Positions 2,774-58,221 of a stretch of DNA of 64,000 nt are shown here, one piece after another. The stretch is taken from the sequence record OM386655.1; one strand, written 5' to 3'. This stretch comes from Escherichia phage vB_EcoM_ESCO10. The position numbers and the translations under genes are program-made. The notes below the pieces were generated by a model, which did no database searches, was not told the origin of the DNA, and worked only from the letters and a program-made list of their open reading frames with translations. How positions within the stretch are numbered: position 1 is the stretch's first letter; each line of letters starts with the position of its first letter.

Positions 2774-3802
2774 CTAAATCTTGGAATATTTTGAAAGTCG
2801 CATTTTTGCCATTAAACCTTGTGCGATATTCTCTTTCATATAAGAAAGGATATCGTTTATATTGGCTTTATCTTTCATAACCATATCATTTATATCTTTA
2901 GAAGGCCATGGAGCCTTGTCCCAGAACAGAACCCTTTCACCGGCATCAACTAGTCGTTGCATACGCTTAATTGTGTCAGGATGACGGGGTTCATTGTCCA
3001 TTACCCATGCTCTTGTTTCTTTACATGGAACTATTGATAAGTCTAACGACCCACCAGTAATTGCTATTGCATTAGGTACAAATAATGAATCGATAGGGCC
3101 TTCCATTACCCACACCAACTGACGTTCGTCAACCGTGTCCATTCCATATATTTTTGTAGCTTGGTCGTGAGCTTTAATTGTAATATATTTTTGTGGGGCA
3201 TCTTTACGTAAAGCTCGACCCTGAAAGCTTTCAATTTGTTTATCTTTATTAAAAATAGGAATAACCAAACGAGGCTCAGGTATTTCTTTAGAATAGGTCC
3301 CGGGATTCACTGAGTTAACCAGCGCCGGCCACTCTTTCGTAAACCATAGTCTATTCCATTTGTTTTCGGGAATGCATCGCAGAGTTACATATTTGATAAT
3401 AGGATGGTCTTTAGGCATTCTATCTAATCGTTCACAGAAATTAAGCTTTTCGATGACAGGCATCTTAGCTTTAATTTTTTCAGATATCTCCACCTTAGGT
3501 GTAGCTTGTCTCCCGAACGATTGCTCTTTATGTTTCTCAAGAATATATTCTCGATATAAATCTGGCTCATATTCGTATAGATACTTCTTAATTCCTGCTG
3601 AATAGTCACAATTAAAACAATGCAACATAATAGAACCATCGTTAGCCGGGTAAGCCCAAAATCGAGCTTTGTTCTCATCTTTTTGTGAGTCACCACATAC
3701 ACGACAACGACAGTTTAATTTAAAATCACTACCGGTTACTTGTCTGAATTTAGGTTGGTAATTCAAGGCACGTACAGCAAATTCTTTATCGACATATGAC
3801 AT
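2774..3802 (-). CDS. 61: DNA primase gp61
   Basis: 342 aa; zinc-binding CRCRVCGD...CFNC N-terminus and length match T4 gp61. Confidence 0.9.
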   Translation of the reverse strand: MSYVDKEFAVRALNYQPKFRQVTGSDFKLNCRCRVCGDSQKDENKARFWAYPANDGSIMLHCFNCDYSAGIKKYLYEYEPDLYREYILEKHKEQSFGRQATPKVEISEKIKAKMPVIEKLNFCERLDRMPKDHPIIKYVTLRCIPENKWNRLWFTKEWPALVNSVNPGTYSKEIPEPRLVIPIFNKDKQIESFQGRALRKDAPQKYITIKAHDQATKIYGMDTVDERQLVWVMEGPIDSLFVPNAIAITGGSLDLSIVPCKETRAWVMDNEPRHPDTIKRMQRLVDAGERVLFWDKAPWPSKDINDMVMKDKANINDILSYMKENIAQGLMAKMRLSKYSKI

Positions 3803-4018
3803 TATTTTTCCTTGGGCTCTAAATTAATAGAGCCATTATATCATTCGTTTTTGGATTTTTCTTTACGCTTTTTAGATGGGATTTGTTCAGGCCCTTTGTT
3901 GACGACTGCGCCTGAGGTAGTTCCGGAGGCAATATTAGATGGATTTCCACCCGCATCACCTGCGACCATATCTTCGTTCATGAACTCTTTATACGTTTTC
4001 ATAGGCTCCTGGCCTTAT

Positions 4019-4210
4019 TTATATTACAAAGATTGCTTTGTCACCATTTGCATCAGTGACTTCATAAGTATCTTCGTGGTACAGTGGGATAATCCAAGTT
4101 ACACCATCACCGGCGATAACATGGATAGCTTCTTGGTCTTGTGACACGATTTCATATTCTTCGAACAGTTCGAATACAGAAATATTAGAGCCCGTACACA
4201 TTGCACTCAT
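4019..4210 (-). CDS. hypothetical small acidic protein (63 aa)
   Basis: ORF in the gene 61-41 accessory block. Confidence 0.4.
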   Translation of the reverse strand: MSAMCTGSNISVFELFEEYEIVSQDQEAIHVIAGDGVTWIIPLYHEDTYEVTDANGDKAIFVI

Positions 4211-4406
4211 ATTGTTCCCTTCTTTTAATCAGTTGACGATGCGCCTTTTTAAGCTTACGAATCTGTCTTTTAGTAGGACGTGCAACGTAAGCTTGTGTAG
4301 TTACTCGTCCGAAAACTCCATACTTTGGAGACGGAGTATCAATGAAGACTTCCCATTGACAAGAGTAGCTATATATTGCTTTAGAAAATTGGGTTAAGAC
4401 AAACAT
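4185..4406 (-). CDS. hypothetical small basic protein (73 aa)
   Basis: ORF; Lys/Arg-rich C-terminus. Confidence 0.4.
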   Translation of the reverse strand: MFVLTQFSKAIYSYSCQWEVFIDTPSPKYGVFGRVTTQAYVARPTKRQIRKLKKAHRQLIKRREQYECNVYGL

Positions 4407-4407
4407 A

Positions 4408-4854
4408 TTAACCTCGATTCATGAAGGCGTTAAAAATCTGGTCGTCAATTGAATAAACCGGAGCTTCAAGAATTTTCAAAAGACTGTTTTTGATGTACTT
4501 GCTAGGGATACCCATATTAACGACCTCGTTATTCAATTCATTGTTTGGATTGATGTCTTTAAATTCAAACCCTTCAAACTCAACCTTGTCAGGAATACCA
4601 TCAGCGAAAAAATAAACCAATTGATGTATTGTATTGTACGAAAATAATTTAGACCTCACTGCAATAAGTTCTTGCCAGTGGTTTAATTCTCTATTAAGAA
4701 GTTTATGGGCAAATACAATCCTATCATCGCTATCAACAATAAAATAACCCAGGTATTGATGGTCGTCGCTCCAATACATCCTGTAGGCCTGTGCATTTGG
4801 ATTTTTACAACGAAGCTTTTTAATAACCAAAGTTCTGTTAATCATTTTATTCAC
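4408..4854 (-). CDS. hypothetical protein (148 aa)
   Basis: ORF abutting spackle. Confidence 0.5.
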   Translation of the reverse strand: MNKMINRTLVIKKLRCKNPNAQAYRMYWSDDHQYLGYFIVDSDDRIVFAHKLLNRELNHWQELIAVRSKLFSYNTIHQLVYFFADGIPDKVEFEGFEFKDINPNNELNNEVVNMGIPSKYIKNSLLKILEAPVYSIDDQIFNAFMNRG

Positions 4855-5697: not shown

Positions 5698-6015
5698 TTA
5701 GATTTCCTCACAGAACGCCCATTCAGCATGATATACTGTAGCGCCTTTAGTATCATTTAAACAAACCACATCTACCGGAGCAATTACACGATATAAACGA
5801 GGTTCTCCTCCCACTGAACGTGCTGCACGTCCAGCATAAATCTTAGCCAAACCGATATTTTCAGTAAAGAACACACGATTAAGGTTTTTCTTACGACCGG
5901 TTTCAGACAGAACTCCTGTTTCCTCAGGAGGACAAAGCATATTACTGATATTAGCAACACTACAACTTCCGTGATAATACACTTTATATTCTGCTTTACA
6001 GTCGATGGTTTTCAT
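5698..6015 (-). CDS. hypothetical protein (105 aa from ATG; track start is a TTG extension)
   Basis: ATG with RBS GGAGAA at 6013-6015; the track N-terminus MENK is translation of the conserved upstream leader. Confidence 0.5.
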   Translation of the reverse strand: MKTIDCKAEYKVYYHGSCSVANISNMLCPPEETGVLSETGRKKNLNRVFFTENIGLAKIYAGRAARSVGGEPRLYRVIAPVDVVCLNDTKGATVYHAEWAFCEEI

Positions 6016-6027
6016 TTTGTTCTCCAA

Positions 6028-6068
6028 GTTGATAGGTCTATAGTATCATGTTTATAGACGTTGTAAAC
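6028..6068 (-). promoter_or_regulatory. T4-type early promoter (repeat family member)
   Basis: GTTTAC ... ATACTATAGACCTATCAAC on minus strand. Confidence 0.55.
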
Positions 6069-6085
6069 CCCTAAAAACAAAAAAA

Positions 6086-6099
6086 GGAGCCGAAGCTCC
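6086..6099 (-). terminator. intrinsic terminator (GGAGC-UUCG-GCUCC + U-run) after gene 41
   Basis: inverted repeat with UUCG loop immediately after the gp41 stop, followed by T-run on minus strand. Confidence 0.6.
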
Positions 6100-7539
6100 T
6101 TAAAATTTGATAGATGCTGCTAAATCGTCCAAATCGCTTCTATTAACACGTGTCTGGCGATTGACCTCTGCTTGGCGATTCATTTCACCCGTAGCCTCAC
6201 GAACAGTATTCACTGGACCTGGATTGCTATCGTCTTCAACTTCATACCAACGTTGGTTACCTTTCTTAACACCAATCTTAAATTTGTTGTAGTAGCTCTT
6301 ATCACCATATCGAGATTTAAGCTGCTTAACCATCTGCATACCCATCTGAGCAAACTCTTCTGTCTCGACTACGCCTAACATAAAGTCAGCAGTATGAGCA
6401 ATACCAAAGGATTCAGCAATATCAGCCATGTCAATTTCGGCTGCAACGTTCGCACCACGAGTAGTCTGGGCTGCCGTCCACAACAACAATTTCTTCTCTA
6501 CTGCAAGACCGCGAAGTTCTTCTGCAACCATCTTAATTAAACCATAACTGTTTTCAGAGAAAACTTTAGTACGAGATGAAGCACAGATGGCCAAGTAGTC
6601 AACGATAACGACCTGCGGAACAAAGTTTTGTTTCAGTTTGTATTCGTTTAATAATGCACGGAATGTATCGGCATTAGCGCCGCCTGTAGGATACTGTTTA
6701 ATCTTTAAACGACCCAAAGTAGCAGTTGAACGCCACTTATCCATCTTAGCTTTATATTCAGGCCATGAGACATGTCCATCATCAATATCATCTAGTGATA
6801 CATCCAGAAGATTAGCATCGATACGCTTAGCGCATACTTCCTCAGCCATCTCCATGGAGATATAAAGAACATCGTAACCAGATTGAAGGTAATCAGCAGC
6901 CAATGAACATAGCCCAAGAGACTTACCTACGTTTGTTCCTGCCAACAATACGTTTTCAGTACCAAACTCTGCTCCACCCTTAGTAATCTTATTCAGAATA
7001 TTAAGACGGAATGGAATTTTACGGGCTTTGTCCGAATAACTTTTAAAACGTTCTTCATAGTCATCCATCCAATCGTGGCCTAACTCAGAATCGAAACAAA
7101 TCGATAATGCATCACGCATGATATCTGGGATAGCACCAATACCTGGGAGTTTTCTATTTTGTTGCTCAACCGGAAGGTCGGCATTAGTTTGAATTTCAAT
7201 GATTTTTGAAGTAGCATTATACATCGCTGCCTTCTGAACATATTTCTCTGTCTCTTTAACCAACCATTCTTGGTCTTCAGGGCCAGCGTTCAGTGAACTT
7301 AAAAGCTCTTTAGCTCCTTGGTGTTCGACTTCTGAAAGGGGGGTGTTATCTAATGCAATACTCAAAGCATTTTTAGAAGGCACCGCATTATATTCATTGA
7401 CGTGTTTTTTGATTTCTTTGAAAAGGGTCTTTGCTGGACCCTGGTCAAAATAAGAATCATTCATATAAGGCCAGACCTTAGTGAAATAATCACTATTGCC
7501 TAGCAGTTGAGCCAAAATAGTTTCTACCACTTCCACCAC
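6100..7539 (-). CDS. 41: replicative DNA helicase gp41 (DnaB-like)
   Basis: 479 aa; near-colinear with T4 gp41 from memory; Walker A GTNVGKS. Confidence 0.95.
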   Translation of the reverse strand: MVEVVETILAQLLGNSDYFTKVWPYMNDSYFDQGPAKTLFKEIKKHVNEYNAVPSKNALSIALDNTPLSEVEHQGAKELLSSLNAGPEDQEWLVKETEKYVQKAAMYNATSKIIEIQTNADLPVEQQNRKLPGIGAIPDIMRDALSICFDSELGHDWMDDYEERFKSYSDKARKIPFRLNILNKITKGGAEFGTENVLLAGTNVGKSLGLCSLAADYLQSGYDVLYISMEMAEEVCAKRIDANLLDVSLDDIDDGHVSWPEYKAKMDKWRSTATLGRLKIKQYPTGGANADTFRALLNEYKLKQNFVPQVVIVDYLAICASSRTKVFSENSYGLIKMVAEELRGLAVEKKLLLWTAAQTTRGANVAAEIDMADIAESFGIAHTADFMLGVVETEEFAQMGMQMVKQLKSRYGDKSYYNKFKIGVKKGNQRWYEVEDDSNPGPVNTVREATGEMNRQAEVNRQTRVNRSDLDDLAASIKF

Positions 7540-37632: not shown

Positions 37633-38187
37633 TTAAGAGTTCATAGTTGGGATAATAGTGTTCAGGTATTTTACCAGAACTTTTAATTCGTCTTTAGTGA
37701 ATACTACTTCAGCTTCACCGTCGTGGGTCTGGATGATAGATAACATATCGCGACCTTGATGTTGGTAGACACTGAATTCAGTATTATAATCACCTTCTTC
37801 ATCACCTTCAAAGGTTTCGCTTGAATGCATAATAGCATCACAACCAGGGATTTTCCACTCGAGCTCAGGTACACACTCTTCTTGGAACAGTTTAAAAATT
37901 TTCTCTAAAAATTCTGAACGGTTTTTAATGGATAAACAAGCCCATTCGGTTTCCAGATTAAAGCCATTTTCACCTCGATACAACCAAGCCATATCTTCAT
38001 CGTTAATTTTAAAGACCCGATTATGAGTTCGAATATACTGCTCTGCATCAATAACAGACAAGTCGTACAGGTTCTGAATATCCTGAATGGTCAAAACGAC
38101 TGTATCATCTTCTTGTTTAAGCACGATTGCATTATCAATTACATCGGCAGTCAGGTCACCAAACAACCCAGATTTTTCAATAATCAT
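37633..38187 (-). CDS. hypothetical acidic protein (184 aa)
   Basis: ORF. Confidence 0.5.
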   Translation of the reverse strand: MIIEKSGLFGDLTADVIDNAIVLKQEDDTVVLTIQDIQNLYDLSVIDAEQYIRTHNRVFKINDEDMAWLYRGENGFNLETEWACLSIKNRSEFLEKIFKLFQEECVPELEWKIPGCDAIMHSSETFEGDEEGDYNTEFSVYQHQGRDMLSIIQTHDGEAEVVFTKDELKVLVKYLNTIIPTMNS

Positions 38188-38198
38188 TTTCTATTTCC

Positions 38199-38381
38199 TC
38201 ATTTCACATTTTGTTTAATAAAATTTAGTAATTCTTTAAGGGCCTTATCTTCTTCTTTAGAAAGCCTAGTACAATCATCAACCGAGTATTGGTGACAAAA
38301 TGCGGTTTCGAATCTAGCAACTGTACCTGCATAGGCCTCGATAAGCTCTTCAAGCTTTAAGTGCTTTTCTTTAGTTTTCAT
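38199..38381 (-). CDS. hypothetical small protein (60 aa)
   Basis: ORF. Confidence 0.35.
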   Translation of the reverse strand: MKTKEKHLKLEELIEAYAGTVARFETAFCHQYSVDDCTRLSKEEDKALKELLNFIKQNVK

Positions 38382-38384
38382 AAA

Positions 38385-38669
38385 TCACCGGTTATGTTTT
38401 AAAATACTATAAAGCTCTTCAACTTGGCTCGCATCCAGATAAATGACCTCGTCATCTTGTTCTAGGACAATCCCACCCTTAACAATATTCCACTCTACTA
38501 CTTCAACAGTCATATCATCACCAGAGCCTGCTAATGTTTCAGGTTCTAAAACAATAATACCATCTTCAGAATTACCACTCGGGTCATATAACATTACAGT
38601 TTCCTCGCTAACCATGAAAAGAATAAACCAATTAAAACAGGCCCTACAGCCATTGTTAACCAAGCCCAA
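38385..38669 (-). CDS. hypothetical protein (94 aa)
   Basis: ORF. Confidence 0.4.
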   Translation of the reverse strand: MGLVNNGCRACFNWFILFMVSEETVMLYDPSGNSEDGIIVLEPETLAGSGDDMTVEVVEWNIVKGGIVLEQDDEVIYLDASQVEELYSILKHNR

Positions 38670-38685
38670 GGTTCAAGATAGTAAA

Positions 38686-38943
38686 TCATCTCATGCTCCT
38701 ATGCCAACAGTTACGTGGCTCGCGTTTAAAAATTTCATCATGCATCGCTTGACAACCTACACAGTATATCACACCCTTGATAGCTTGACGTCGTGCTTCA
38801 GGAATCTCTTCATCACAATCAAAACAATATTCAGCGGATTCACGTTCAACCGCTACTTGCTTACGAGCGTGTACTATAGCAGCCTGGACGACGGCTTCCA
38901 TTTCGAGCTGTTCGGCTCCATCCTTCGCAAATCCAACAGCCAT
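38686..38943 (-). CDS. TraR/DksA-type C4 zinc-finger protein
   Basis: 85 aa; CFDCDEEIPEARR...YCVGC motif. Confidence 0.5.
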   Translation of the reverse strand: MAVGFAKDGAEQLEMEAVVQAAIVHARKQVAVERESAEYCFDCDEEIPEARRQAIKGVIYCVGCQAMHDEIFKREPRNCWHRSMR

Positions 38944-39125
38944 TATATTTTTATCTCGTTTAGATAAGCGACCAATTTTTCTTTAGAATTCTTTAAGTCA
39001 CGGTTACATGCCTCTATCCCGGAGTATGAATATCCTTCGCAATGTTCAACAGCCAGTTCATAAGAGGTAATTTCAATATCACGAGCGAGTTTAATAATTT
39101 TTTCAATCTGTTCAGTGGTTAACAT
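38943..39125 (-). CDS. hypothetical small protein (60 aa)
   Basis: ORF. Confidence 0.35.
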   Translation of the reverse strand: MLTTEQIEKIIKLARDIEITSYELAVEHCEGYSYSGIEACNRDLKNSKEKLVAYLNEIKI

Positions 39126-39129
39126 AATA

Positions 39130-39366
39130 TCACCAGTATTTGTTGATGGTAGAAATTAATTCTTGGGCTTGAGTAGTCTTCAGCTTACACCCACATCCAT
39201 TTAATGTATCTTTAAGGAGCCATGGCTCCTTGAGCTCGTCCTTTTCTAGACGAATTCTGTATCCTCGGTAATCAGCAAAGATACTTCGGTCATCAAATAT
39301 CTTAATCTCAAGGAGACGGTTATTGATTTCGTATTCCAACGAAACCATAGTACTTGTAAGTTTCAT
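39130..39366 (-). CDS. hypothetical protein (78 aa)
   Basis: RBS GAGGAG; directly downstream of an early promoter. Confidence 0.45.
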   Translation of the reverse strand: MKLTSTMVSLEYEINNRLLEIKIFDDRSIFADYRGYRIRLEKDELKEPWLLKDTLNGCGCKLKTTQAQELISTINKYW

Positions 39367-39381
39367 AATATTCTCCTCATT

Positions 39382-39422
39382 AGTTGATAGGTCTATAGTA
39401 TCATGTTCCTAGAGGATGTAAA
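39382..39422 (-). promoter_or_regulatory. T4-type early promoter (repeat family)
   Basis: GTTTAC ... ATACTATAGACCTATCAAC. Confidence 0.55.
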
Positions 39423-39434
39423 CACCTAAACGAA

Positions 39435-39460
39435 AAAAGGTCCCACCGAAGTGAGACCTT
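39435..39460 (-). terminator. intrinsic terminator hairpin with UUCG loop
   Basis: AAAGGTCCCAC-CGAA-GTGAGACCTTT (one wobble) after the stop of 39464..39850. Confidence 0.5.
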
Positions 39461-39463
39461 TGA

Positions 39464-39850
39464 TTATTCTAACGTTAACAAATACTTAGTTTGGTAAAAG
39501 ACACCAGTGATGTCGTCCAAAGTCGATTGGATGGCCTTAGGAAGATTTTTGTAGATTTTATCAGATGCTTTAATAAGTTCATCAAGAAAATCTATAGGGT
39601 CTTTAGGCAGTTCTGAAGCAGACGGCAGTGATGCTTTATATTCTTTGCCACTAAATCCTAGATACTGCTCACTGAACTGGTCTAGTGGTCCTTGAACTTC
39701 CGTATAATAGAAGTCGTATGCTTTGTGTCTTGCATAGCTTTTGGTTTCCAAATGGGCTGACTTAAAATAGGCTAAAGAAACCAATAGCCAGCCAATATAA
39801 GAATCTACTTCAGTCCCTCGACTAAGTACGAAATCATTGAATTTCATCAT
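39464..39850 (-). CDS. hypothetical protein (128 aa)
   Basis: ORF. Confidence 0.5.
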   Translation of the reverse strand: MMKFNDFVLSRGTEVDSYIGWLLVSLAYFKSAHLETKSYARHKAYDFYYTEVQGPLDQFSEQYLGFSGKEYKASLPSASELPKDPIDFLDELIKASDKIYKNLPKAIQSTLDDITGVFYQTKYLLTLE

Positions 39851-40127
39851 CTACCTTCATTAGTTTAGCGTATCGTTCTCCGACCGCCCGACCTTCAATC
39901 GAGCAAGACTCTATTGTATTGCAATTTGAAAGTTTCCAAGAAGCAGTTACATAAGCCCAGTAGTCTTCAGAGGCCTTTACGCTAGGTTTACTCATTTGCG
40001 CATAAACTGGCATCGCACTACTAGCAAAGGCGTCCATCAATTTAGGATCGGATTTGTTTGCTAGTGAAACTGTTGGGCTTAAACATCCAATCATAAGGAT
40101 ACAAGCCACTGTACGGAAAATACCCAT
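39834..40127 (-). CDS. rI: lysis inhibition regulator RI-like (antiholin)
   Basis: 97 aa; signal-anchor N-terminus; C-terminal part resembles T4 RI from memory (SEDYWAYV...CNTIESC...RYAKLM); adjacent to tk as in T4. Confidence 0.6.
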   Translation of the reverse strand: MGIFRTVACILMIGCLSPTVSLANKSDPKLMDAFASSAMPVYAQMSKPSVKASEDYWAYVTASWKLSNCNTIESCSIEGRAVGERYAKLMKVDDEIQ

Positions 40128-40220
40128 ACAAAAGTCCTTTGTTATTTTATACGAATTTGCCTTTCGGCCTTAACCGATAGCGTTTTCCAAAAGCAAAAGC
40201 TCTATGGTTAGTAATTGTAT

Positions 40221-40499
40221 TTATAGCTTTTTAAGCTTACTACAATAAGCATAAAATACATCGTTAAAATTTTCAGAAACCCATCCACGCTGTATAGGCG
40301 AAGTAATTGAAAGCAGATAATGTGCTTTAATTAACTCCATCCCATTTTTATTAGGGCATTCTTTATTATTAGCATTATACGTCGCTGCTACAACCTCTAT
40401 CTCTCTTTTGTAAGCCGTATCATCCATGATAGGCAAAAGAACAATATAAGAAATAGCCACAGCTACCGCTAGAATTAAAATCTTTGAATTTAGGTCCAT
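40221..40499 (-). CDS. small membrane protein (92 aa)
   Basis: N-terminal TM helix. Confidence 0.45.
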   Translation of the reverse strand: MDLNSKILILAVAVAISYIVLLPIMDDTAYKREIEVVAATYNANNKECPNKNGMELIKAHYLLSITSPIQRGWVSENFNDVFYAYCSKLKKL

Positions 40500-40506
40500 A
40501 GTACCC

Positions 40507-41079
40507 TCAACTCGTTATTTCTATCCAATGCTTCCTGCACAATGACACGTAAGAATCGTTGCCACCTATAGAAACTTGGTCGCCGTCCTTAATTGCGATA
40601 CCATTTTGGATACGAGCTGTCATAGTAGCCTTACGTCCACAATGGCACACACCTTTGTACTCAACGAGTTTATCTGCTGTAGCTAATAATTCAGCAGAGC
40701 CAGGAAACAGTTTACCCTGAAAATCAGTTCTTAGACCGTAACACATGACCGGTATATTATAATTATCTACTATCTTTGCTAATTGTTTTATTTGCAAAGG
40801 TTCTAAGAACTGTGCTTCATCCACAAACACACAGTGGATATCTTTTTGAGATTCAGCCCAACGATAGAACTCGTATAGGTCCATATCTGGAGTCACTGCA
40901 TTAGCCTCTTGGCTAATCCCTATACGAGACGAAATTCTATGGCTTGATTCTCTATTATCTATCGCAGGCTTTAAAAGGAGTACACCCATACCACGTTCTT
41001 TGTAGTTATGGGCCGCCGTTAGCAATGAAGAGGTCTTCCCAGAATTCATCGCAGCATAATGGAAATAAAGTTGGGCCAT
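40507..41079 (-). CDS. tk: thymidine kinase
   Basis: 190 aa; P-loop MNSGKTS and C-terminal zinc motif CHCGRKA...SLCRKH; matches T4 Tk. Confidence 0.9.
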   Translation of the reverse strand: MAQLYFHYAAMNSGKTSSLLTAAHNYKERGMGVLLLKPAIDNRESSHRISSRIGISQEANAVTPDMDLYEFYRWAESQKDIHCVFVDEAQFLEPLQIKQLAKIVDNYNIPVMCYGLRTDFQGKLFPGSAELLATADKLVEYKGVCHCGRKATMTARIQNGIAIKDGDQVSIGGNDSYVSLCRKHWIEITS

Positions 41080-41088
41080 ATTACCTTC

Positions 41089-41292
41089 TTAAAGACTATT
41101 TACATAAGCAATTAATTCGTTTTCTTTCTCATCAAACTGTTCGGCGATTTTTTCGTAATCTTCAGCGCTCACAGGACCCCATTCATCGTATGATTGCATT
41201 CCAGAATTCTCTTCTAGAAGCTCATGGATAAGCTCAAACAATTTATCTTTTTGTTCTTTACTTAGACTCATAACCATTGCACCTTTAAACAA
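41089..41292 (-). CDS. hypothetical small acidic protein (67 aa)
   Basis: ORF. Confidence 0.4.
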   Translation of the reverse strand: MFKGAMVMSLSKEQKDKLFELIHELLEENSGMQSYDEWGPVSAEDYEKIAEQFDEKENELIAYVNSL

Positions 41293-41480
41293 TATTCATC
41301 TACGTGTTGGACACGTTTGTTTTTGTCAATAAAAGTATATTCAACATACTCGCCAATATACCGCTTATCCACATTGTGAGGACTTTTTATAGGACACTTG
41401 GTTACTCGGGTTTCAGTCCAGTGTCGAATAATTTCTGCTTTGTTTTTAGGGTCAAACGGATGTGGGTAATGGGCTTTCAT
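41268..41480 (-). CDS. hypothetical small protein (70 aa)
   Basis: ORF. Confidence 0.4.
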   Translation of the reverse strand: MKAHYPHPFDPKNKAEIIRHWTETRVTKCPIKSPHNVDKRYIGEYVEYTFIDKNKRVQHVDEYCLKVQWL

Positions 41481-41922
41481 AATCTACCACCACTAAATTA
41501 ATATCAGGAGTAAACAAATTAATCAATTGATAAACATTGTCCCAATCACCACCAGCAATACCACAGCCAATGCGAGGAATATAAATTCTCGGTTTAAACA
41601 AAAGACCCTTTGCAGTACGGTTTAATTCTATCATACAGTTTACTAAAGCACCATAATCAAGATTAGGACCTGGTTCATATTGCGTATAAAGATTATAGCA
41701 AATTTGGCCATTATTGCCTGTGGCTTGAGTAAATGTCCCAAGTTTTGCCGCATCACCTAAATAAGTGGCTTCTCTATCAATGGCAAGAATAGGTGAATAA
41801 GCCTTAGCCAATTGACCTGCTACGCCCGAACCCATAGTATGAAAACAGTTACACCCATGAGCAACGTTATTACCTTGAAGAAACAGGGCGACGATATCGC
41901 CCTTAATATAATCAATAATCAT
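41452..41922 (-). CDS. macro-domain protein (ADP-ribose binding/processing)
   Basis: 156 aa; macro-domain-like motifs VAHGCNCFHTMGSGVAG and IPRIGCGIAGGDW. Confidence 0.65.
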   Translation of the reverse strand: MIIDYIKGDIVALFLQGNNVAHGCNCFHTMGSGVAGQLAKAYSPILAIDREATYLGDAAKLGTFTQATGNNGQICYNLYTQYEPGPNLDYGALVNCMIELNRTAKGLLFKPRIYIPRIGCGIAGGDWDNVYQLINLFTPDINLVVVDYESPLPTSV

Positions 41923-42275
41923 TTAGAGTTTAGTCCTCGGTTGTAAGAGTCAACGAGTCTGTCTACCATAGACGCGCACATTTCTTTATACTTTTTATCA
42001 GATGGAACACATTCAGTAACATTTAGACGTTGCTCGTATCTTTTAGAAAGGGTTTTCTCTTTCATTCGACGATGCTCGACGTCATTCTGCCCGTCTTTAA
42101 AAGCAGCTGTTATTTTTGAACTGAATTCAATAACACATTCAGTATTACTTGGATGACAATAATCTTTTGCTGTACGGGTAGCATACTCGACAATTGAATT
42201 ATTGGTATCATCAACCTGTGACGCTAATACTCCCGGAGCAATCAACATAAGCGCTATAGTCATCTGTTTAATCAT
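41919..42275 (-). CDS. periplasmic protein with signal peptide (118 aa; possibly Vs-like)
   Basis: N-terminal signal peptide; position next to regB. Confidence 0.45.
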   Translation of the reverse strand: MIKQMTIALMLIAPGVLASQVDDTNNSIVEYATRTAKDYCHPSNTECVIEFSSKITAAFKDGQNDVEHRRMKEKTLSKRYEQRLNVTECVPSDKKYKEMCASMVDRLVDSYNRGLNSK

Positions 42276-42815
42276 TTAATATACCGCCTCAAACATCTTT
42301 TTAGATTTTAGGTAATTGGCCTTTTCTAGAACTTCCGAAGCATATTTACTACCTGCTTTGGCATTCCAGCCTGCATTATAAGAAGCAATCGCTTTTCTCA
42401 GGTCACCTTTGTGAACATTAATCCAATACGACAGTTCAATGTAGGCCCAAGAGGCACTGTTCTGTCGGTTTTGGACCATACGAATTATTTCTTTATCTGA
42501 CATCTTCCAACCTACCTGTTTAACACGACTTCTTAACGTAGGCAAGTAATTTTGGAACATGCCATAAGCATGGTGCTTATCTTTATTTAAACCTTGATTA
42601 ATCCCAGCAGATGATTCCTGCCATAATAATCCAGCCATTATATATCCTAATCCTTTTTGATTAGGGGTTTCTTTGAACTTTCCCGACTTTTGGTATTGTT
42701 CACCGAAAGCATACGCGTAATGTAAATTATCGAGTTGTTCATTACTGAAAGTAGGCTCTACGCTATAGGCAGACATACTAACTGTCAATAGTAAAGTGGC
42801 TAATACTTTTTTCAT
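42276..42815 (-). CDS. secreted lytic transglycosylase-like (SLT domain) protein
   Basis: 179 aa; signal peptide; catalytic-region motifs LWQES and AYNAG. Confidence 0.6.
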   Translation of the reverse strand: MKKVLATLLLTVSMSAYSVEPTFSNEQLDNLHYAYAFGEQYQKSGKFKETPNQKGLGYIMAGLLWQESSAGINQGLNKDKHHAYGMFQNYLPTLRSRVKQVGWKMSDKEIIRMVQNRQNSASWAYIELSYWINVHKGDLRKAIASYNAGWNAKAGSKYASEVLEKANYLKSKKMFEAVY

Positions 42816-42827
42816 GAGACCTCATTA

Positions 42828-43286
42828 TTAAAGATAGATTACTTTAGTGCTCGTTTTACCTTCTAAACGTTTAGAGTTAACAAATGCCATACGACATTTT
42901 AATGAATATCCTTTATCAGGATGTTTACGATCTACAGTCATACCTAACCATAAGGTTTTATCGGTAATCTCGAGACGCAGTGGACGATACACTTTACCTG
43001 GGACAATTTCAGATTCTACATCAGGCATAGGTTCCTGGATTAAAAATTCATGGATTTCTTTAACATGGTTATGGAGTTGCTTGAATAAAGCAAAAACGTA
43101 TTTTTCGTCAATTTCACGTTGGATAGCACGGTCCAATAGGTGATTAGAGTACTTAATAAAGAAAGCTGGGACTCCACTCTTAATGGCGGCTTTTTTGATG
43201 GATGTATTCAGTTCACGAAATTCGGTTTCGAACTGACGACGTAATTTGTTGCGGCGGATGAATACTTCTGAATTAATTTCTGACAT
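42828..43286 (-). CDS. regB: endoribonuclease RegB
   Basis: 152 aa; EVFIRRNKLRR.FE.EFR...HLLDRAIQREIDE matches T4 RegB. Confidence 0.85.
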   Translation of the reverse strand: MSEINSEVFIRRNKLRRQFETEFRELNTSIKKAAIKSGVPAFFIKYSNHLLDRAIQREIDEKYVFALFKQLHNHVKEIHEFLIQEPMPDVESEIVPGKVYRPLRLEITDKTLWLGMTVDRKHPDKGYSLKCRMAFVNSKRLEGKTSTKVIYL

Positions 43287-43301
43287 TTTGTTTCTCCTGT
43301 A

Positions 43302-43342
43302 GTTGATAGGTTTATAGTATCATGCCTACAGGAGATGTAAAC
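43302..43342 (-). promoter_or_regulatory. T4-type early promoter (repeat family)
   Basis: GTTTAC ... ATACTATAAACCTATCAAC upstream of regB. Confidence 0.55.
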
Positions 43343-43346
43343 TGCT

Positions 43347-43598
43347 TTATTCTTGGAATGGTGTGAGTTTTCCAGCTATCGAACAAATTTCTACCATTGC
43401 AGGATAAAACTCTTTCACTTGTTCAAGGCGCTGGACAGCGTACCGCATTTCGCCTTCTTCAAGACAAGCAACCTGGTCATCGAGCAAATATTTGTGGTAA
43501 CCGGTACAGGCTTCGCTAATGATACGTTGGAATTCTTGCAAACTTTCAATTTTCACTAGTATTTTTCCTCGGGTCGAAATACTGCACGACATGCCCAC
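43347..43598 (-). CDS. hypothetical protein (83 aa)
   Basis: ORF. Confidence 0.45.
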   Translation of the reverse strand: MGMSCSISTRGKILVKIESLQEFQRIISEACTGYHKYLLDDQVACLEEGEMRYAVQRLEQVKEFYPAMVEICSIAGKLTPFQE

Positions 43599-43819
43599 AT
43601 GCTGGCTTCTTTTAGATGTTGCTTAGCATACTTAAGAGCCTGCACCGCATCCATATCTTCTTTGGTTTGTTGCTCTGTTTCATTTTCTTTCAAGATATAT
43701 GCTTCTTCAATCAGAGCATCAAACATCAATCCAAGACGGACTTCTGCATCTTTAATAGCGTTCACTTTACCGATTTTATCGTCGGTATGCGGCTTGTAAC
43801 CTTTGATGTCTTCAATCAT
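43556..43819 (-). CDS. hypothetical helical protein (87 aa)
   Basis: ORF. Confidence 0.45.
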   Translation of the reverse strand: MIEDIKGYKPHTDDKIGKVNAIKDAEVRLGLMFDALIEEAYILKENETEQQTKEDMDAVQALKYAKQHLKEASMWACRAVFRPEEKY

Positions 43820-44073
43820 TTCACTTCCTCACCAGTTGCGATATCATATTCTACCAAACGAAGCCCATCCGTCCAACCTTGTACGGAGATATAAGTGGTC
43901 GGATAAACCATTTCTTTACCATTCCATTGACCACCGTCCCAGACTTCCAGAAAGTCTTGTTCACCGGGTCCATTAAACCATTCAACGAATCTTTTCAAGG
44001 CTACATCAGAGCCTTCAATCGTCAGTTTAGACATATTTTTTCCAGTCATTAACCATACGAATCTCTTGGTCAT
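43816..44073 (-). CDS. hypothetical protein (85 aa)
   Basis: ORF, ATGA-coupled. Confidence 0.45.
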   Translation of the reverse strand: MTKRFVWLMTGKNMSKLTIEGSDVALKRFVEWFNGPGEQDFLEVWDGGQWNGKEMVYPTTYISVQGWTDGLRLVEYDIATGEEVK

Positions 44074-44323
44074 ATGTCAAGAGGCTACGAGTTATAATAC
44101 CCTTACATGGTCCTGAGATGAACTCTAGAGTGAAGTAAGGAACTTGTTTCATTAATCGGATACTTGGGGCATGGCATCTAAAACGAGAGCCTGTAAATGG
44201 CCCTGACATGAACACGTATTCTAATGGATAGAAATATGCGTATTCAAAATTTATAGTAAGGTCTTCTCTTCGAACCTTACGTGAGAAATAGCAGAACTCA
44301 AAAAGCTCTTCATCAGTCATCAT
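44027..44323 (-). CDS. hypothetical protein (98 aa)
   Basis: ORF. Confidence 0.4.
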   Translation of the reverse strand: MMTDEELFEFCYFSRKVRREDLTINFEYAYFYPLEYVFMSGPFTGSRFRCHAPSIRLMKQVPYFTLEFISGPCKGIITRSLLTYDQEIRMVNDWKKYV

Positions 44324-44910
44324 TGCATTCCAATCACAAAAAATTGAGGTCGAGTATTACCACCAATGCAAAATTTACTATCGCAGCAGTACTGTACAGT
44401 GTCAATATGGGCACTATAAATCTTATCCATATCAGGAGATTTAATAGGCTCATCAATTATATACAAAATTCGCGAAAGCTTTAAACCTCTGAACTTGCTT
44501 CCTTTATTACCGATAAAGCTACGTAATGAATCATGGAAAAGCCGGTAACGAATATCTTCCGCGCTAAAACGAATAAAATCATTTTTGATAGAATCGGATG
44601 AAATTTTAGCGTAAGCTGAAGTATTAGAAAGAACAATAACTGTTCCGCCATCATATAACCAATTGGCAGCAAAGTTAGTCACAGCAATTGATTTACCGGA
44701 TTGACGTCCACCATCTATACGAAGTGTGCAATACTGTTTAAGTACGTCTTCAAATGGCGGGATATAATCGTTTTTACAAAGTTCTTCTATTCGAGCATCA
44801 GAATGGTGGGTAAAAGCATTCATCAGGGATAGATAAGGTCCGGTTAAAAAAGTTCTCATATTGTTTCTCTTAAGGTTTTGGGGCCATTCCTTGGCACATA
44901 ATTCATCCAT
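44320..44910 (-). CDS. P-loop NTPase-like protein (196 aa)
   Basis: Walker A-like GGRQSGKS. Confidence 0.5.
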   Translation of the reverse strand: MDELCAKEWPQNLKRNNMRTFLTGPYLSLMNAFTHHSDARIEELCKNDYIPPFEDVLKQYCTLRIDGGRQSGKSIAVTNFAANWLYDGGTVIVLSNTSAYAKISSDSIKNDFIRFSAEDIRYRLFHDSLRSFIGNKGSKFRGLKLSRILYIIDEPIKSPDMDKIYSAHIDTVQYCCDSKFCIGGNTRPQFFVIGMQ

Positions 44911-45021
44911 GTATCCGTATGTAACCCTTTACCGCACTTGGGCTCGACCTTATTACAGGTAGGGAAAGGTCCATCACTCAGAGGACGCGACGTTCATGAG
45001 GAGAGGGCCGGCTTGCCTTTA

Positions 45022-45321
45022 TTAGAAAGAACCAGAGCCTTTAATTGTATTCTGACGTCCTTTATTTTCTACTTCAGAGTGGTCGATTTCGTAAGCTTGT
45101 GCTACACCAAAGGATTTTTTAATTTTAGCCAATGAGCCTTTAGAAATAACAATGTTAAAGGTGTTGCCTTTAGAAAAATCAACCAACTCTACAGTAACAC
45201 CGTTATTGGTTAAACTATTAACAATAGCATCAACATATTGCTGGTCTAAAGTTCCCTGAACGCCAATTTGAAAAGCTTTAGGTGCTTTAGCTTCAGTGAT
45301 AAATTCTTGATATGTTTTCAT
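45022..45321 (-). CDS. internal protein (IP) with capsid targeting sequence
   Basis: N-terminus MKTYQEFITEAK matches the T4 IP capsid-targeting sequence (MKTYQEFIAEA). Confidence 0.65.
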   Translation of the reverse strand: MKTYQEFITEAKAPKAFQIGVQGTLDQQYVDAIVNSLTNNGVTVELVDFSKGNTFNIVISKGSLAKIKKSFGVAQAYEIDHSEVENKGRQNTIKGSGSF

Positions 45322-45329
45322 ATTATTCC

Positions 45330-45689
45330 TTAAAGATGGTCAAGGGCTGGGTTATGAGGTTTTTCTGCTTTAGTAGTGTTTTTATGCCAATCTGATTTAG
45401 AAACACGGATGGCATCAGCGCCATAAGAACTCTTAAGGAGACCTTTTTTATTGTACACACTTATTGAAGTAAGAGAATCACCATTCCATGTAGCATGAAT
45501 GAAGTTAGATTTAGATTTAAGTTCTTTAGCCAAGCTCTGGTTAGTGGCCATGGAAGCAAAGTCTATACCTGTAACTTTAAAAACTTCAGATGGGTTCAGC
45601 CCTTCTTTAGCCTTAGCCAATTGTTCAGGAGACATACCTTCGTTAATGCGCTGAGTAGATTCAGTAATAAATTGTTTGTAAGTTTTCAT
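45330..45689 (-). CDS. internal protein (IP) with capsid targeting sequence
   Basis: N-terminus MKTYKQFITES. Confidence 0.65.
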   Translation of the reverse strand: MKTYKQFITESTQRINEGMSPEQLAKAKEGLNPSEVFKVTGIDFASMATNQSLAKELKSKSNFIHATWNGDSLTSISVYNKKGLLKSSYGADAIRVSKSDWHKNTTKAEKPHNPALDHL

Positions 45690-45731
45690 ATTATTCCTTA
45701 AGTTGATAGAAGTATTCTATCACGGATTTAA

Positions 45732-46148
45732 TTAAGCGTAAATAGCCTTACCATAATGTTTGTACCAGGTAGGGCGTTGTGCAATTTTTTCGTCTAAACG
45801 GGCTTGTGATATAGCGATAGAAGCTTCATGGGGAATATAATCACCACGGAATTCCTGAGGAATATCACTAATATCCTGGACTGTAGTATCCTTGATATTA
45901 AACCCGCGTTTTAGACATTCGGCTATAAGCTCAATTTGACGTTTACGTAAGAACTCAAGCTTATCGTAAAAGAATGTAACATGACCCGTGCCAAGGATAA
46001 AACCTGAGCTGATTTTAAAATCACGAACACGTTTACCATTAGCAACATGCTTACGAACTGCACTGAAAACACGTGGTAATTCACGATATTCAGCCATTAA
46101 GTGTTGGTCAGCCAATTCAGATACTAAAGTAAGGTTGATACGAGTCAT
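45732..46148 (-). CDS. denV: endonuclease V (pyrimidine-dimer DNA glycosylase) DenV
   Basis: 138 aa from [26 protein letters not shown] (near-identical to T4 DenV from memory); track ORF is extended 59 codons upstream; RBS AGGAG. Confidence 0.9.
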
Positions 46149-46738: not shown

Positions 46739-47188
46739 TTAGAACATCGAGCTCAGAACCTTATACATCGACTGGCCCATGACATATTCCCATTGTGGAC
46801 GTTTAATCAAGGCGAAAGCATCGAACTCAGGAATACTACGACCGTCAGGGAACGTATGATAAGCAGTACATTTGCAATTCTTGAACTGCTCGTGTTCCAC
46901 AGGCACAGTATATAAGAACAGGTGTAGATTCTTATTGCTAGAATATTTGAACTCACCTAGGTCTTTCAGGAACGCAGGGTCATATGCAGTGAATCCAATC
47001 TCTTCTTCGGTTTCACGCATAGCGGCTTGAATTGGTTCTTCACCCAGTTCAACATGACCTTTAGGAATGTCCCATTTATGACGCATATTCTCTGGATTAC
47101 GAGAACCTGTTACACGGCCCATGACTAGTTCTTTATCAACGGTCATGAACAAAATACCTGCTGATAGTTCTTTAACTTTCTTACTCAT
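46739..47188 (-). CDS. nudE: Nudix hydrolase NudE
   Basis: 149 aa from MSKKVKEL; Nudix box [22 protein letters not shown]. Confidence 0.75.

Positions 47189-57543: not shown

Positions 57544-58221
<678 letters not shown>

Follow-up and report, generated by a model that had tools for sequence, protein, structure and literature searches.

A Dhakavirus ortholog of phage T4 tk.4 encodes a probable anti-DarT2 macrodomain with a predicted SCO6735-type active site

Introduction

The macrodomain hydrolases TARG1, DarG and SCO6735 all remove ADP-ribose linked to N3 of thymine in DNA and to N3 of uracil in RNA (PMC13036486). SCO6735 takes thymidine-linked ADP-ribose off DNA, and cells exposed to DarT are rescued by it. 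Its Q85A mutant is inactive and its N27S mutant nearly inactive, while the backbone carbonyl of V25 was proposed to hold the water molecule that starts catalysis (PMC9411070).

Phages carry macrodomain proteins as well. When a genome-wide T4 transposon library was grown on a host expressing DarTG2 (HIDEN-SEQ), tk.4 was the single significant gene, and a clean T4 tk.4 knockout was sensitive to DarTG2; the gene was renamed adfM, for anti-DarT factor Macrodomain (10.1101/2025.11.20.689424, preprint of November 2025). The evidence on tk.4 in that preprint is genetic, and enzymatic removal of ADP-ribose from DNA is worded there as what "seems likely" (10.1101/2025.11.20.689424). Independently, gp104 of phage PhiKZ was also named AdfM, in Cell Reports in 2026; DNA de-ADP-ribosylation by gp104 was obtained in vitro, and earlier work, as the authors state, contains no report of a macrodomain Adf (PMC13309987). 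T4 also has AdfN (gene 30.3, NADAR), which counters DarTG1, not DarTG2, and erases guanine-linked ADP-ribose (PMC11825919).

Here we describe a macrodomain gene in a stretch of 64,000 nucleotides from Escherichia phage vB_EcoM_ESCO10 (OM386655.1), called the window below.

Results

Genomic context of the gene

We compared positions 38000-46000 of the window with known genomes by megablast. The closest genome was Escherichia phage vB_EcoM-VR5 (Dhakavirus, Tevenvirinae; 96.6% identity, 85% coverage), and the next matches were other phages of the JS98/JS10/IME08 type. By nucleotide similarity, the window belongs to a T4-like Dhakavirus. VR5 has a gene for a 245-aa intron-like homing endonuclease between tk and tk.2 (3566-4303 of the VR5 stretch). 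This gene is absent from the window (site 41079-41292), where only 1870-2289 is related to it, with 33% identity, and its presence in VR5 explains part of the 85% coverage.

The gene under study is located on the minus strand at 41452..41922, stop codon included. It starts with ATG and encodes a single-domain macrodomain protein of 156 amino acids. The initial annotation had listed this open reading frame, giving no strand, together with two glycine-rich motifs in its product; both motifs, HGCNCFHTMGSGVAG and IPRIGCGIAGGDW, were matched to the raw DNA. The gene sits in a dense block of minus-strand genes, and the leftward block consists mostly of small genes, vs, tk and tk.4 among them. The upstream gene, at 41919..42275 (minus strand), is vs, the valyl-tRNA synthetase modifier, whose product is 100% identical to VR5 Vs. 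Downstream, at 41268..41480 (minus strand), is tk.3, which encodes 70 amino acids and was recognized as an open reading frame and from gene order.

The TGA stop codon of vs and the ATG of tk.4 share the letters ATGA at 41919-41922, and the same 4-nt overlap is present in T4. This overlap suggests that translation of vs and tk.4 is coupled. The start of tk.3 lies inside the 3' end of tk.4, with an overlap of 29 nt (4 nt in T4). A scan of positions 40400-45200 was uninformative both for promoter-like sites (17 against 15.2 ± 3.4 expected) and for terminator-like sites (4 against 3.5 expected).

In VR5 the counterpart is gp107, which is 98.7% identical to the window protein, is labelled "phosphatase; similar to Tk.4 of phage T4" and has vs on one side and tk.2/tk on the other. 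The gene order in T4 is vs, tk.4, tk.3, tk.2, tk.1, tk; the order in the window (vs, tk.4, tk.3, tk.2, tk) matches T4 and Dhakavirus records. Along its whole length the window protein has 52% identity to T4 Tk.4 (E = 4e-63), and it also matched PHROG 335 (E = 5.9e-65). On a profile made from homologs of the window protein, T4 Tk.4 scored 201.7 bits. The full-length identity, taken together with the same gene order, identifies 41452..41922 as the syntenic ortholog of T4 tk.4.

We also compared alleles of the gene among related phages. VR5, MX01, IME08 and JS10 have alleles 94-99% identical to the window Tk.4. JS98, although of the same genus, reaches only 75%; certain T4-like phages (slur02, teqhad) reach 73%, and T4 has 52%. 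For a syntenic gene the alleles appear unusually mosaic, which fits exchange of, or diversifying selection on, an anti-defence gene. The window protein ends in 7 residues (PLPTSV tail; 41452-41480) that have no match in VR5, as the alignment stops at residue 149. This tail is probably disordered and dispensable, because pLDDT in the predicted model is only about 52 there.

Fold and class of the protein

The window protein matched the Pfam Macro family (PF01661) with 29.3 bits against a gathering cut-off of 22 (E = 8.9e-7; profile positions 2-117 of 118). An AlphaFold2 model built on an alignment of 64 sequences was of high confidence (mean pLDDT 95.1, pTM 0.89) and has the three-layer alpha/beta/alpha arrangement of the macro fold. 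The initial annotation had called the product a macro-domain protein, and both the Pfam score and the model bear this out.

The best Foldseek match to the model was TARG1 (E = 4e-10, TM 0.75-0.85), and sequence searches of the PDB recovered the same group. Since the two kinds of search agree, the window protein is placed in the ALC1/TARG1-like class of macrodomains. MacroD and YmdB, which the initial annotation had named for comparison, were only second-tier structural matches. We therefore rejected the MacroD/YmdB type, as the nearest neighbours in structure and in sequence are ALC1/TARG1-like.

Active-site residues

We examined conservation in an alignment of 64 sequences (A1) and among 258 relatives. 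Of the latter, 120 came from a word-indexed search, and the other 138 are additional sequences among the 150 matches listed by an exhaustive search of 1.84 billion cluster representatives. The 258 relatives reach down to about 37% identity. Reference sequences were checked against PDB chains (Mtb DarG, 5m3i; TARG1, 2lgr; SCO6735, 5e3b; Poa1p, 6lfq; and BT1257) and aligned by hmmalign.

Three segments were delimited by conservation, profile and alignment, all on the minus strand. Loop 1, the catalytic loop HGCNCFHTMGSGVAG, comprises residues 22-36 (41815..41859). Its residues H22, G23, N25, G33 and A35 were invariant in A1, and N25 was found in 257, C26 in 256, G23 in 255 and H22 in 252 of the 258 relatives. 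The motif N77-L-Y79-T80-Q81 (41680..41694) was defined by the profile and the multiple alignment; here Q81 and Y79 were each present in 257 of the relatives and N77 in 256, while none of the 258 had lysine at position 81. Loop 2, the diphosphate-binding loop IPRIGCGIAGGDW, comprises residues 115-127 (41542..41580) and aligns with PRIGCGLDRLQW of TARG1 and PRIGCGLAGGTW of SCO6735. P116, I118, G119, G121 and G125 of this loop were invariant in A1 and near-invariant in the 258 relatives. Both glycine-rich loops are thus intact and near-invariant, and they are predicted to bind ADP-ribose.

In the alignment of the profile to TARG1, Q81 stands opposite the catalytic K84 and A123 opposite the catalytic D125. 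The multiple alignment places Q81 opposite K80 of DarG, the lysine of FPTKD in PhiKZ gp104, Q85 of SCO6735 and a glutamine of BT1257. It also places H22-G23-C24-N25 opposite H24-V25-C26-N27 of SCO6735, with N25 opposite N22 of DarG and N23 of PhiKZ gp104 as well. Counterparts of loop 1 residues have been mutated in SCO6735 (PMC9411070) and in PhiKZ gp104 (PMC13309987). Taken with the near-absolute conservation of Q81, N25 and H22, this residue alignment indicates that the Tk.4 family has a Gln/Asn/His catalytic centre of the SCO6735 type, and not the lysine chemistry of DarG and TARG1.

Legacy labels of the family ("phosphatase", "contains A1pp phosphatase motif") would make the protein an ADP-ribose-1''-phosphate phosphatase, like yeast Poa1p acting on the by-product of RNA 2'-phosphotransferase. 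The HSCNC of Poa1p resembles HGCNC of the window protein. Two residues of Poa1p were mutated in PDB 6LFS and 6LFT, H23 and S30; the first is matched by H22, and T29 occupies the position of the second. However, the region around Q81 has no reliable, only an ambiguous, alignment to Poa1p, and on the Tk.4-family profile Poa1p scored 49.6 bits, below BT1257, TARG1 and SCO6735 (62.8-73.5 bits). We know of no source of Appr-1''-p in T-even infection. The labels themselves come from motif-level transfer and fold similarity to Poa1p, not from experiment, and the only phenotype of tk.4 in the literature we consulted is sensitivity to DarTG2. We therefore consider a phosphatase very improbable.

Relation to DarG and PhiKZ gp104

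We scored the proteins against profiles of DarG. On the PADLOC DarG model PhiKZ gp104 reached 132.9 bits, T4 Tk.4 36.0, SCO6735 34.5 and the window protein 21.8, and on the NCBIfam DarG model NF048014 the window protein obtained 17.3 bits against a cut-off of 250. On the Tk.4-family profile, PhiKZ gp104 scored 31.9 bits, the lowest of the hydrolases compared, and the non-hydrolase ALC1 domain 13.5 bits. In identity, too, PhiKZ gp104 is nearer to DarG macrodomains (32-36%) than to the Tk.4 proteins (18-20%). Since the DarG-profile scores, the family-profile scores and the identities all differ in this way, the name AdfM covers two non-orthologous subfamilies of one class, namely T4 Tk.4 (Gln-type) and PhiKZ gp104 (Lys-type, DarG-like).

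The preprint on T4 framed Tk.4 as a DarG homolog. We rejected membership in DarG, as the window protein fails on the catalytic lysine, the C-terminal domain and the profile score, and kept the functional analogy. DarG has a C-terminal DarT-binding domain and an adjacent darT, whereas the window protein has neither and its neighbours are vs and tk.3. In two phage-like contigs that we examined, no darT was present beside the family members.

Function against DarTG2

The initial annotation had proposed that the protein might reverse ADP-ribosylation by host toxins. Orthology to T4 tk.4, which is needed against DarTG2, supports this proposal. We estimate with a probability of about 75% that the window protein is a Dhakavirus Tk.4/AdfM, an orphan "antitoxin" that hydrolyses the thymidine-linked ADP-ribose left by DarT2 on phage DNA and does so through a SCO6735-type site. 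That an ortholog with 52% identity acts like T4 Tk.4, and by catalytic DNA de-ADP-ribosylation, is what we infer.

The proposed course of events is as follows. As is known from the literature, DarT2, once host DarTG2 has been triggered by infection, ADP-ribosylates thymidines in single-stranded phage DNA, by which replication is blocked. The Tk.4-type macrodomain would then bind the ADP-ribose via its two glycine-rich loops, with Q81, held by N25, positioning the distal ribose in a site that has no catalytic lysine. Water held by the backbone at G23, the equivalent of V25 in SCO6735, probably starts the reaction. Hydrolysis of the N-glycosidic bond between thymine and ribose would release free ADP-ribose and restore the base.

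We searched six-frame translations of phage genomes with the family profile. Phage T5, which served as the DarTG2-sensitive control in the preprint on T4, had no family member (best score 8.7 bits, E = 0.08); the same search gave 213.6 bits for the window and 201.7 bits for T4. The T5 result is a single data point that is consistent with the anti-DarTG2 model.

We also found a fusion protein, P0208, of 472 amino acids (6001-7419 on two phage-like metagenomic contigs), in which a Tk.4-type macrodomain with the motifs HGCNC, NAYTQF and PLIGCGLAGG is joined to NADAR and DUF4326. Because the eraser folds for thymine-linked and guanine-linked ADP-ribose lie in one chain, P0208 may be a dual factor against DarT1 and DarT2. 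The fusion is independent evidence that the Tk.4 type acts on nucleic-acid ADP-ribosylation.

DarT2, or another ADP-ribosyltransferase, might also be countered in a non-catalytic way: the protein could bind the toxin and inhibit it, or could cover the modified site. Stoichiometric inhibition of DarT2 is conceivable because the Q85A mutant of SCO6735, K80A of DarG and K84A of TARG1 all inhibit DarT in vitro, SCO6735 most strongly (PMC9411070), and the T4 tk.4 genetics are compatible with catalysis and with inhibition alike. However, the window protein is a single domain and has no counterpart of the DarT-binding C-terminal domain of DarG, and fusion with a NADAR hydrolase suggests an enzyme. 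The near-absolute conservation of Q81, N25, H22, G23 and both glycine loops across many phage groups is also easier to reconcile with a conserved chemical step than with adaptation to the varied surfaces of toxins. For these reasons we regard a purely non-catalytic action as quite unlikely.

A further question is the substrate. The main one could be another ADP-ribose conjugate, such as U-ADPr RNA, protein ADP-ribosylated on Glu/Asp, or the marks left by phage Alt, ModA or ModB, in which case the action against DarT2 would be only part of what a broader eraser does. SCO6735 and TARG1 cleave U-ADPr on RNA too (PMC13036486), as well as Glu-linked protein ADP-ribose (PMC9411070). The window protein is acidic and does not have the DNA-binding lysines of SCO6735, and VR5 carries modA and modB just beyond the stretch that matches the window. 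To our knowledge, however, Alt and Mod enzymes modify arginine, and macrodomains of the ALC1/TARG1 class are not known to cleave that linkage. The T4 screens also speak against a different main substrate, as the conditional need for tk.4 was specific to the host with DarTG2 (10.1101/2025.11.20.689424). SCO6735, moreover, was reported inactive on RNA ADP-ribosylated at the 2'-OH; for ADP-ribose on the 5'-phosphate of RNA the paper with this result describes SCO6735 as inactive in its results and as active in its discussion. We consider it unlikely that another conjugate is the main substrate, though worth keeping in mind. That the protein serves as a sponge or eraser of ADP-ribose-derived immune signals, for instance gcADPR-type molecules of Thoeris, is a reading to which we attach hardly any weight.

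The charge of the protein was considered as well. It has a pI of 4.9, with 9 Lys+Arg against 13 Asp+Glu, and among 201 family members with a single domain, 73% had a pI below 7. In contrast, basic values (pI 8.5-9.5; SCO6735, 9.5) were obtained for SCO6735, TARG1 and T. aquaticus DarG. PhiKZ AdfM, which de-modifies DNA in vitro, is similarly acidic (pI 5.05). Since a DNA-active protein is equally acidic, we no longer count net charge against DNA as the substrate.

Other anti-defence and ADP-ribose genes in the window

The slot of T4 AdfA (gene 61.2, 208 aa) is taken in the window by an open reading frame of 145 amino acids (4411-4845, minus strand). Only its 14 C-terminal residues match T4 61.2 (4411-4452, 100%), and the rest is dissimilar; the phage may therefore have no functional AdfA, or may have a replaced module. 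The gene for AdfN was not present in the 64,000-nt window.

About 5 kb from tk.4 there is an ortholog of nudE, which encodes a Nudix hydrolase (46742-47188, minus strand; 99% identical to VR5 NudE). T4 NudE hydrolyses ADP-ribose, so the ortholog could dispose of free ADP-ribose released by the macrodomain. An ortholog of gene 57B lies at 57547-57999 (minus strand; 100% identical to VR5), and 57B of T4 is the anti-CBASS nuclease Acb1 (10.1101/2025.11.20.689424). With tk.4 and this ortholog, the window therefore has at least two anti-defence enzymes.

Discussion

The tk.4 ortholog of the window is genuine, but it is an ordinary anti-defence gene that is in essence known, as the role of its T4 counterpart was already worked out genetically. 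The finding is confirmatory and leaves the picture drawn by the literature of 2022-2026 unchanged. The family is large. The exhaustive search gave 17,949 cluster representatives at E <= 1e-3, and 9,266 relatives lay at E <= 1e-10. At E <= 1e-30 the family formed 1,272 clusters at 50% identity, and matches were found in 2,667 phage records. The gene helps to explain how T-even phages plate on E. coli that carries DarTG2, and the widespread label "phosphatase" should become [quoted passage not shown].

The anatomy of the active site is the one point at which our analysis goes past the published papers on Tk.4 and AdfM. What is new here is the Gln-type site with family-specific motifs, together with the collision of two proteins under the name AdfM. 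The family is also of use to enzymology, as a small Gln-type variant that occurs in nature and with which the water-mediated mechanism proposed for SCO6735 can be probed.

A bolder reading would make the Tk.4 family a third mechanistic subtype of thymine/uracil-ADP-ribose glycohydrolase, apart from the Lys-type (DarG, TARG1, PhiKZ AdfM) and from SCO6735. It would be marked by a Gln site with its own near-invariant H-G-C-N-C and N-x-Y-T-Q motifs, by glycine where the water would be held, and by a short loop and acidic surface, and its substrates would perhaps be broader than DarT2-modified DNA (e.g. U-ADPr RNA or what other toxin ADP-ribosyltransferases produce). If this were true, phages would have acquired the two proteins named AdfM independently, and their chemistry would differ. 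We put this forward tentatively and hold it to be possible, but doubtful.

In comparison with known systems, the closest in active-site residues is SCO6735 (Streptomyces coelicolor, PDB 5E3B), which has the Gln, and the Asn and His of an H-x-C-N motif, in common with the window protein and is among its nearest relatives of solved structure. However, SCO6735 and BT1257 of Bacteroides (PDB 2AFC/2FG1) are only 26-30% identical to it. In the phage family the loop after the Gln is shorter by about 6 residues and does not have K89 and K94, with which SCO6735 binds DNA, and the DNA-binding K34 is replaced by S32. V25 of SCO6735, where Val/Ile was called SCO6735-specific by its authors, corresponds to G23 in 255 of the 258 relatives; as the role proposed for V25 is one of the backbone, the change to Gly may be tolerated and may not matter to function.

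Human TARG1/OARD1 (PDB 4J5S) resembles the window protein in its PRIGCG loop and in the shortness of the loop that follows the catalytic position, but both residues of its Lys84-Asp125 dyad are replaced in the window protein (Q81, A123), and identity is 21-25%. DarG (Mtb 5M3I, T. aquaticus 5M31/5M3E) and PhiKZ gp104 are of Lys-type, with FPTKK and FPTKD, respectively, where the window protein has Gln; their identity to it is 18-22%.

T4 Tk.4 is nearly equal in length (155 aa against 156 in the window) and has the motifs HGCNCFHTMGSGVAGQL, NLYTQ[YF]xPGPN and PRIG in common with the window protein. About half of the residues differ, the pI is 5.9 against 4.9, and the diphosphate loop reads GAGIGKGNW in T4 against GCGIAGGDW, the family consensus, in the window protein. 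T4 AdfN has a fold unrelated to Tk.4 and acts on guanine-linked ADP-ribose, but it follows the same strategy, in which a phage carries an orphan "antitoxin" enzyme that removes DarT marks from DNA.
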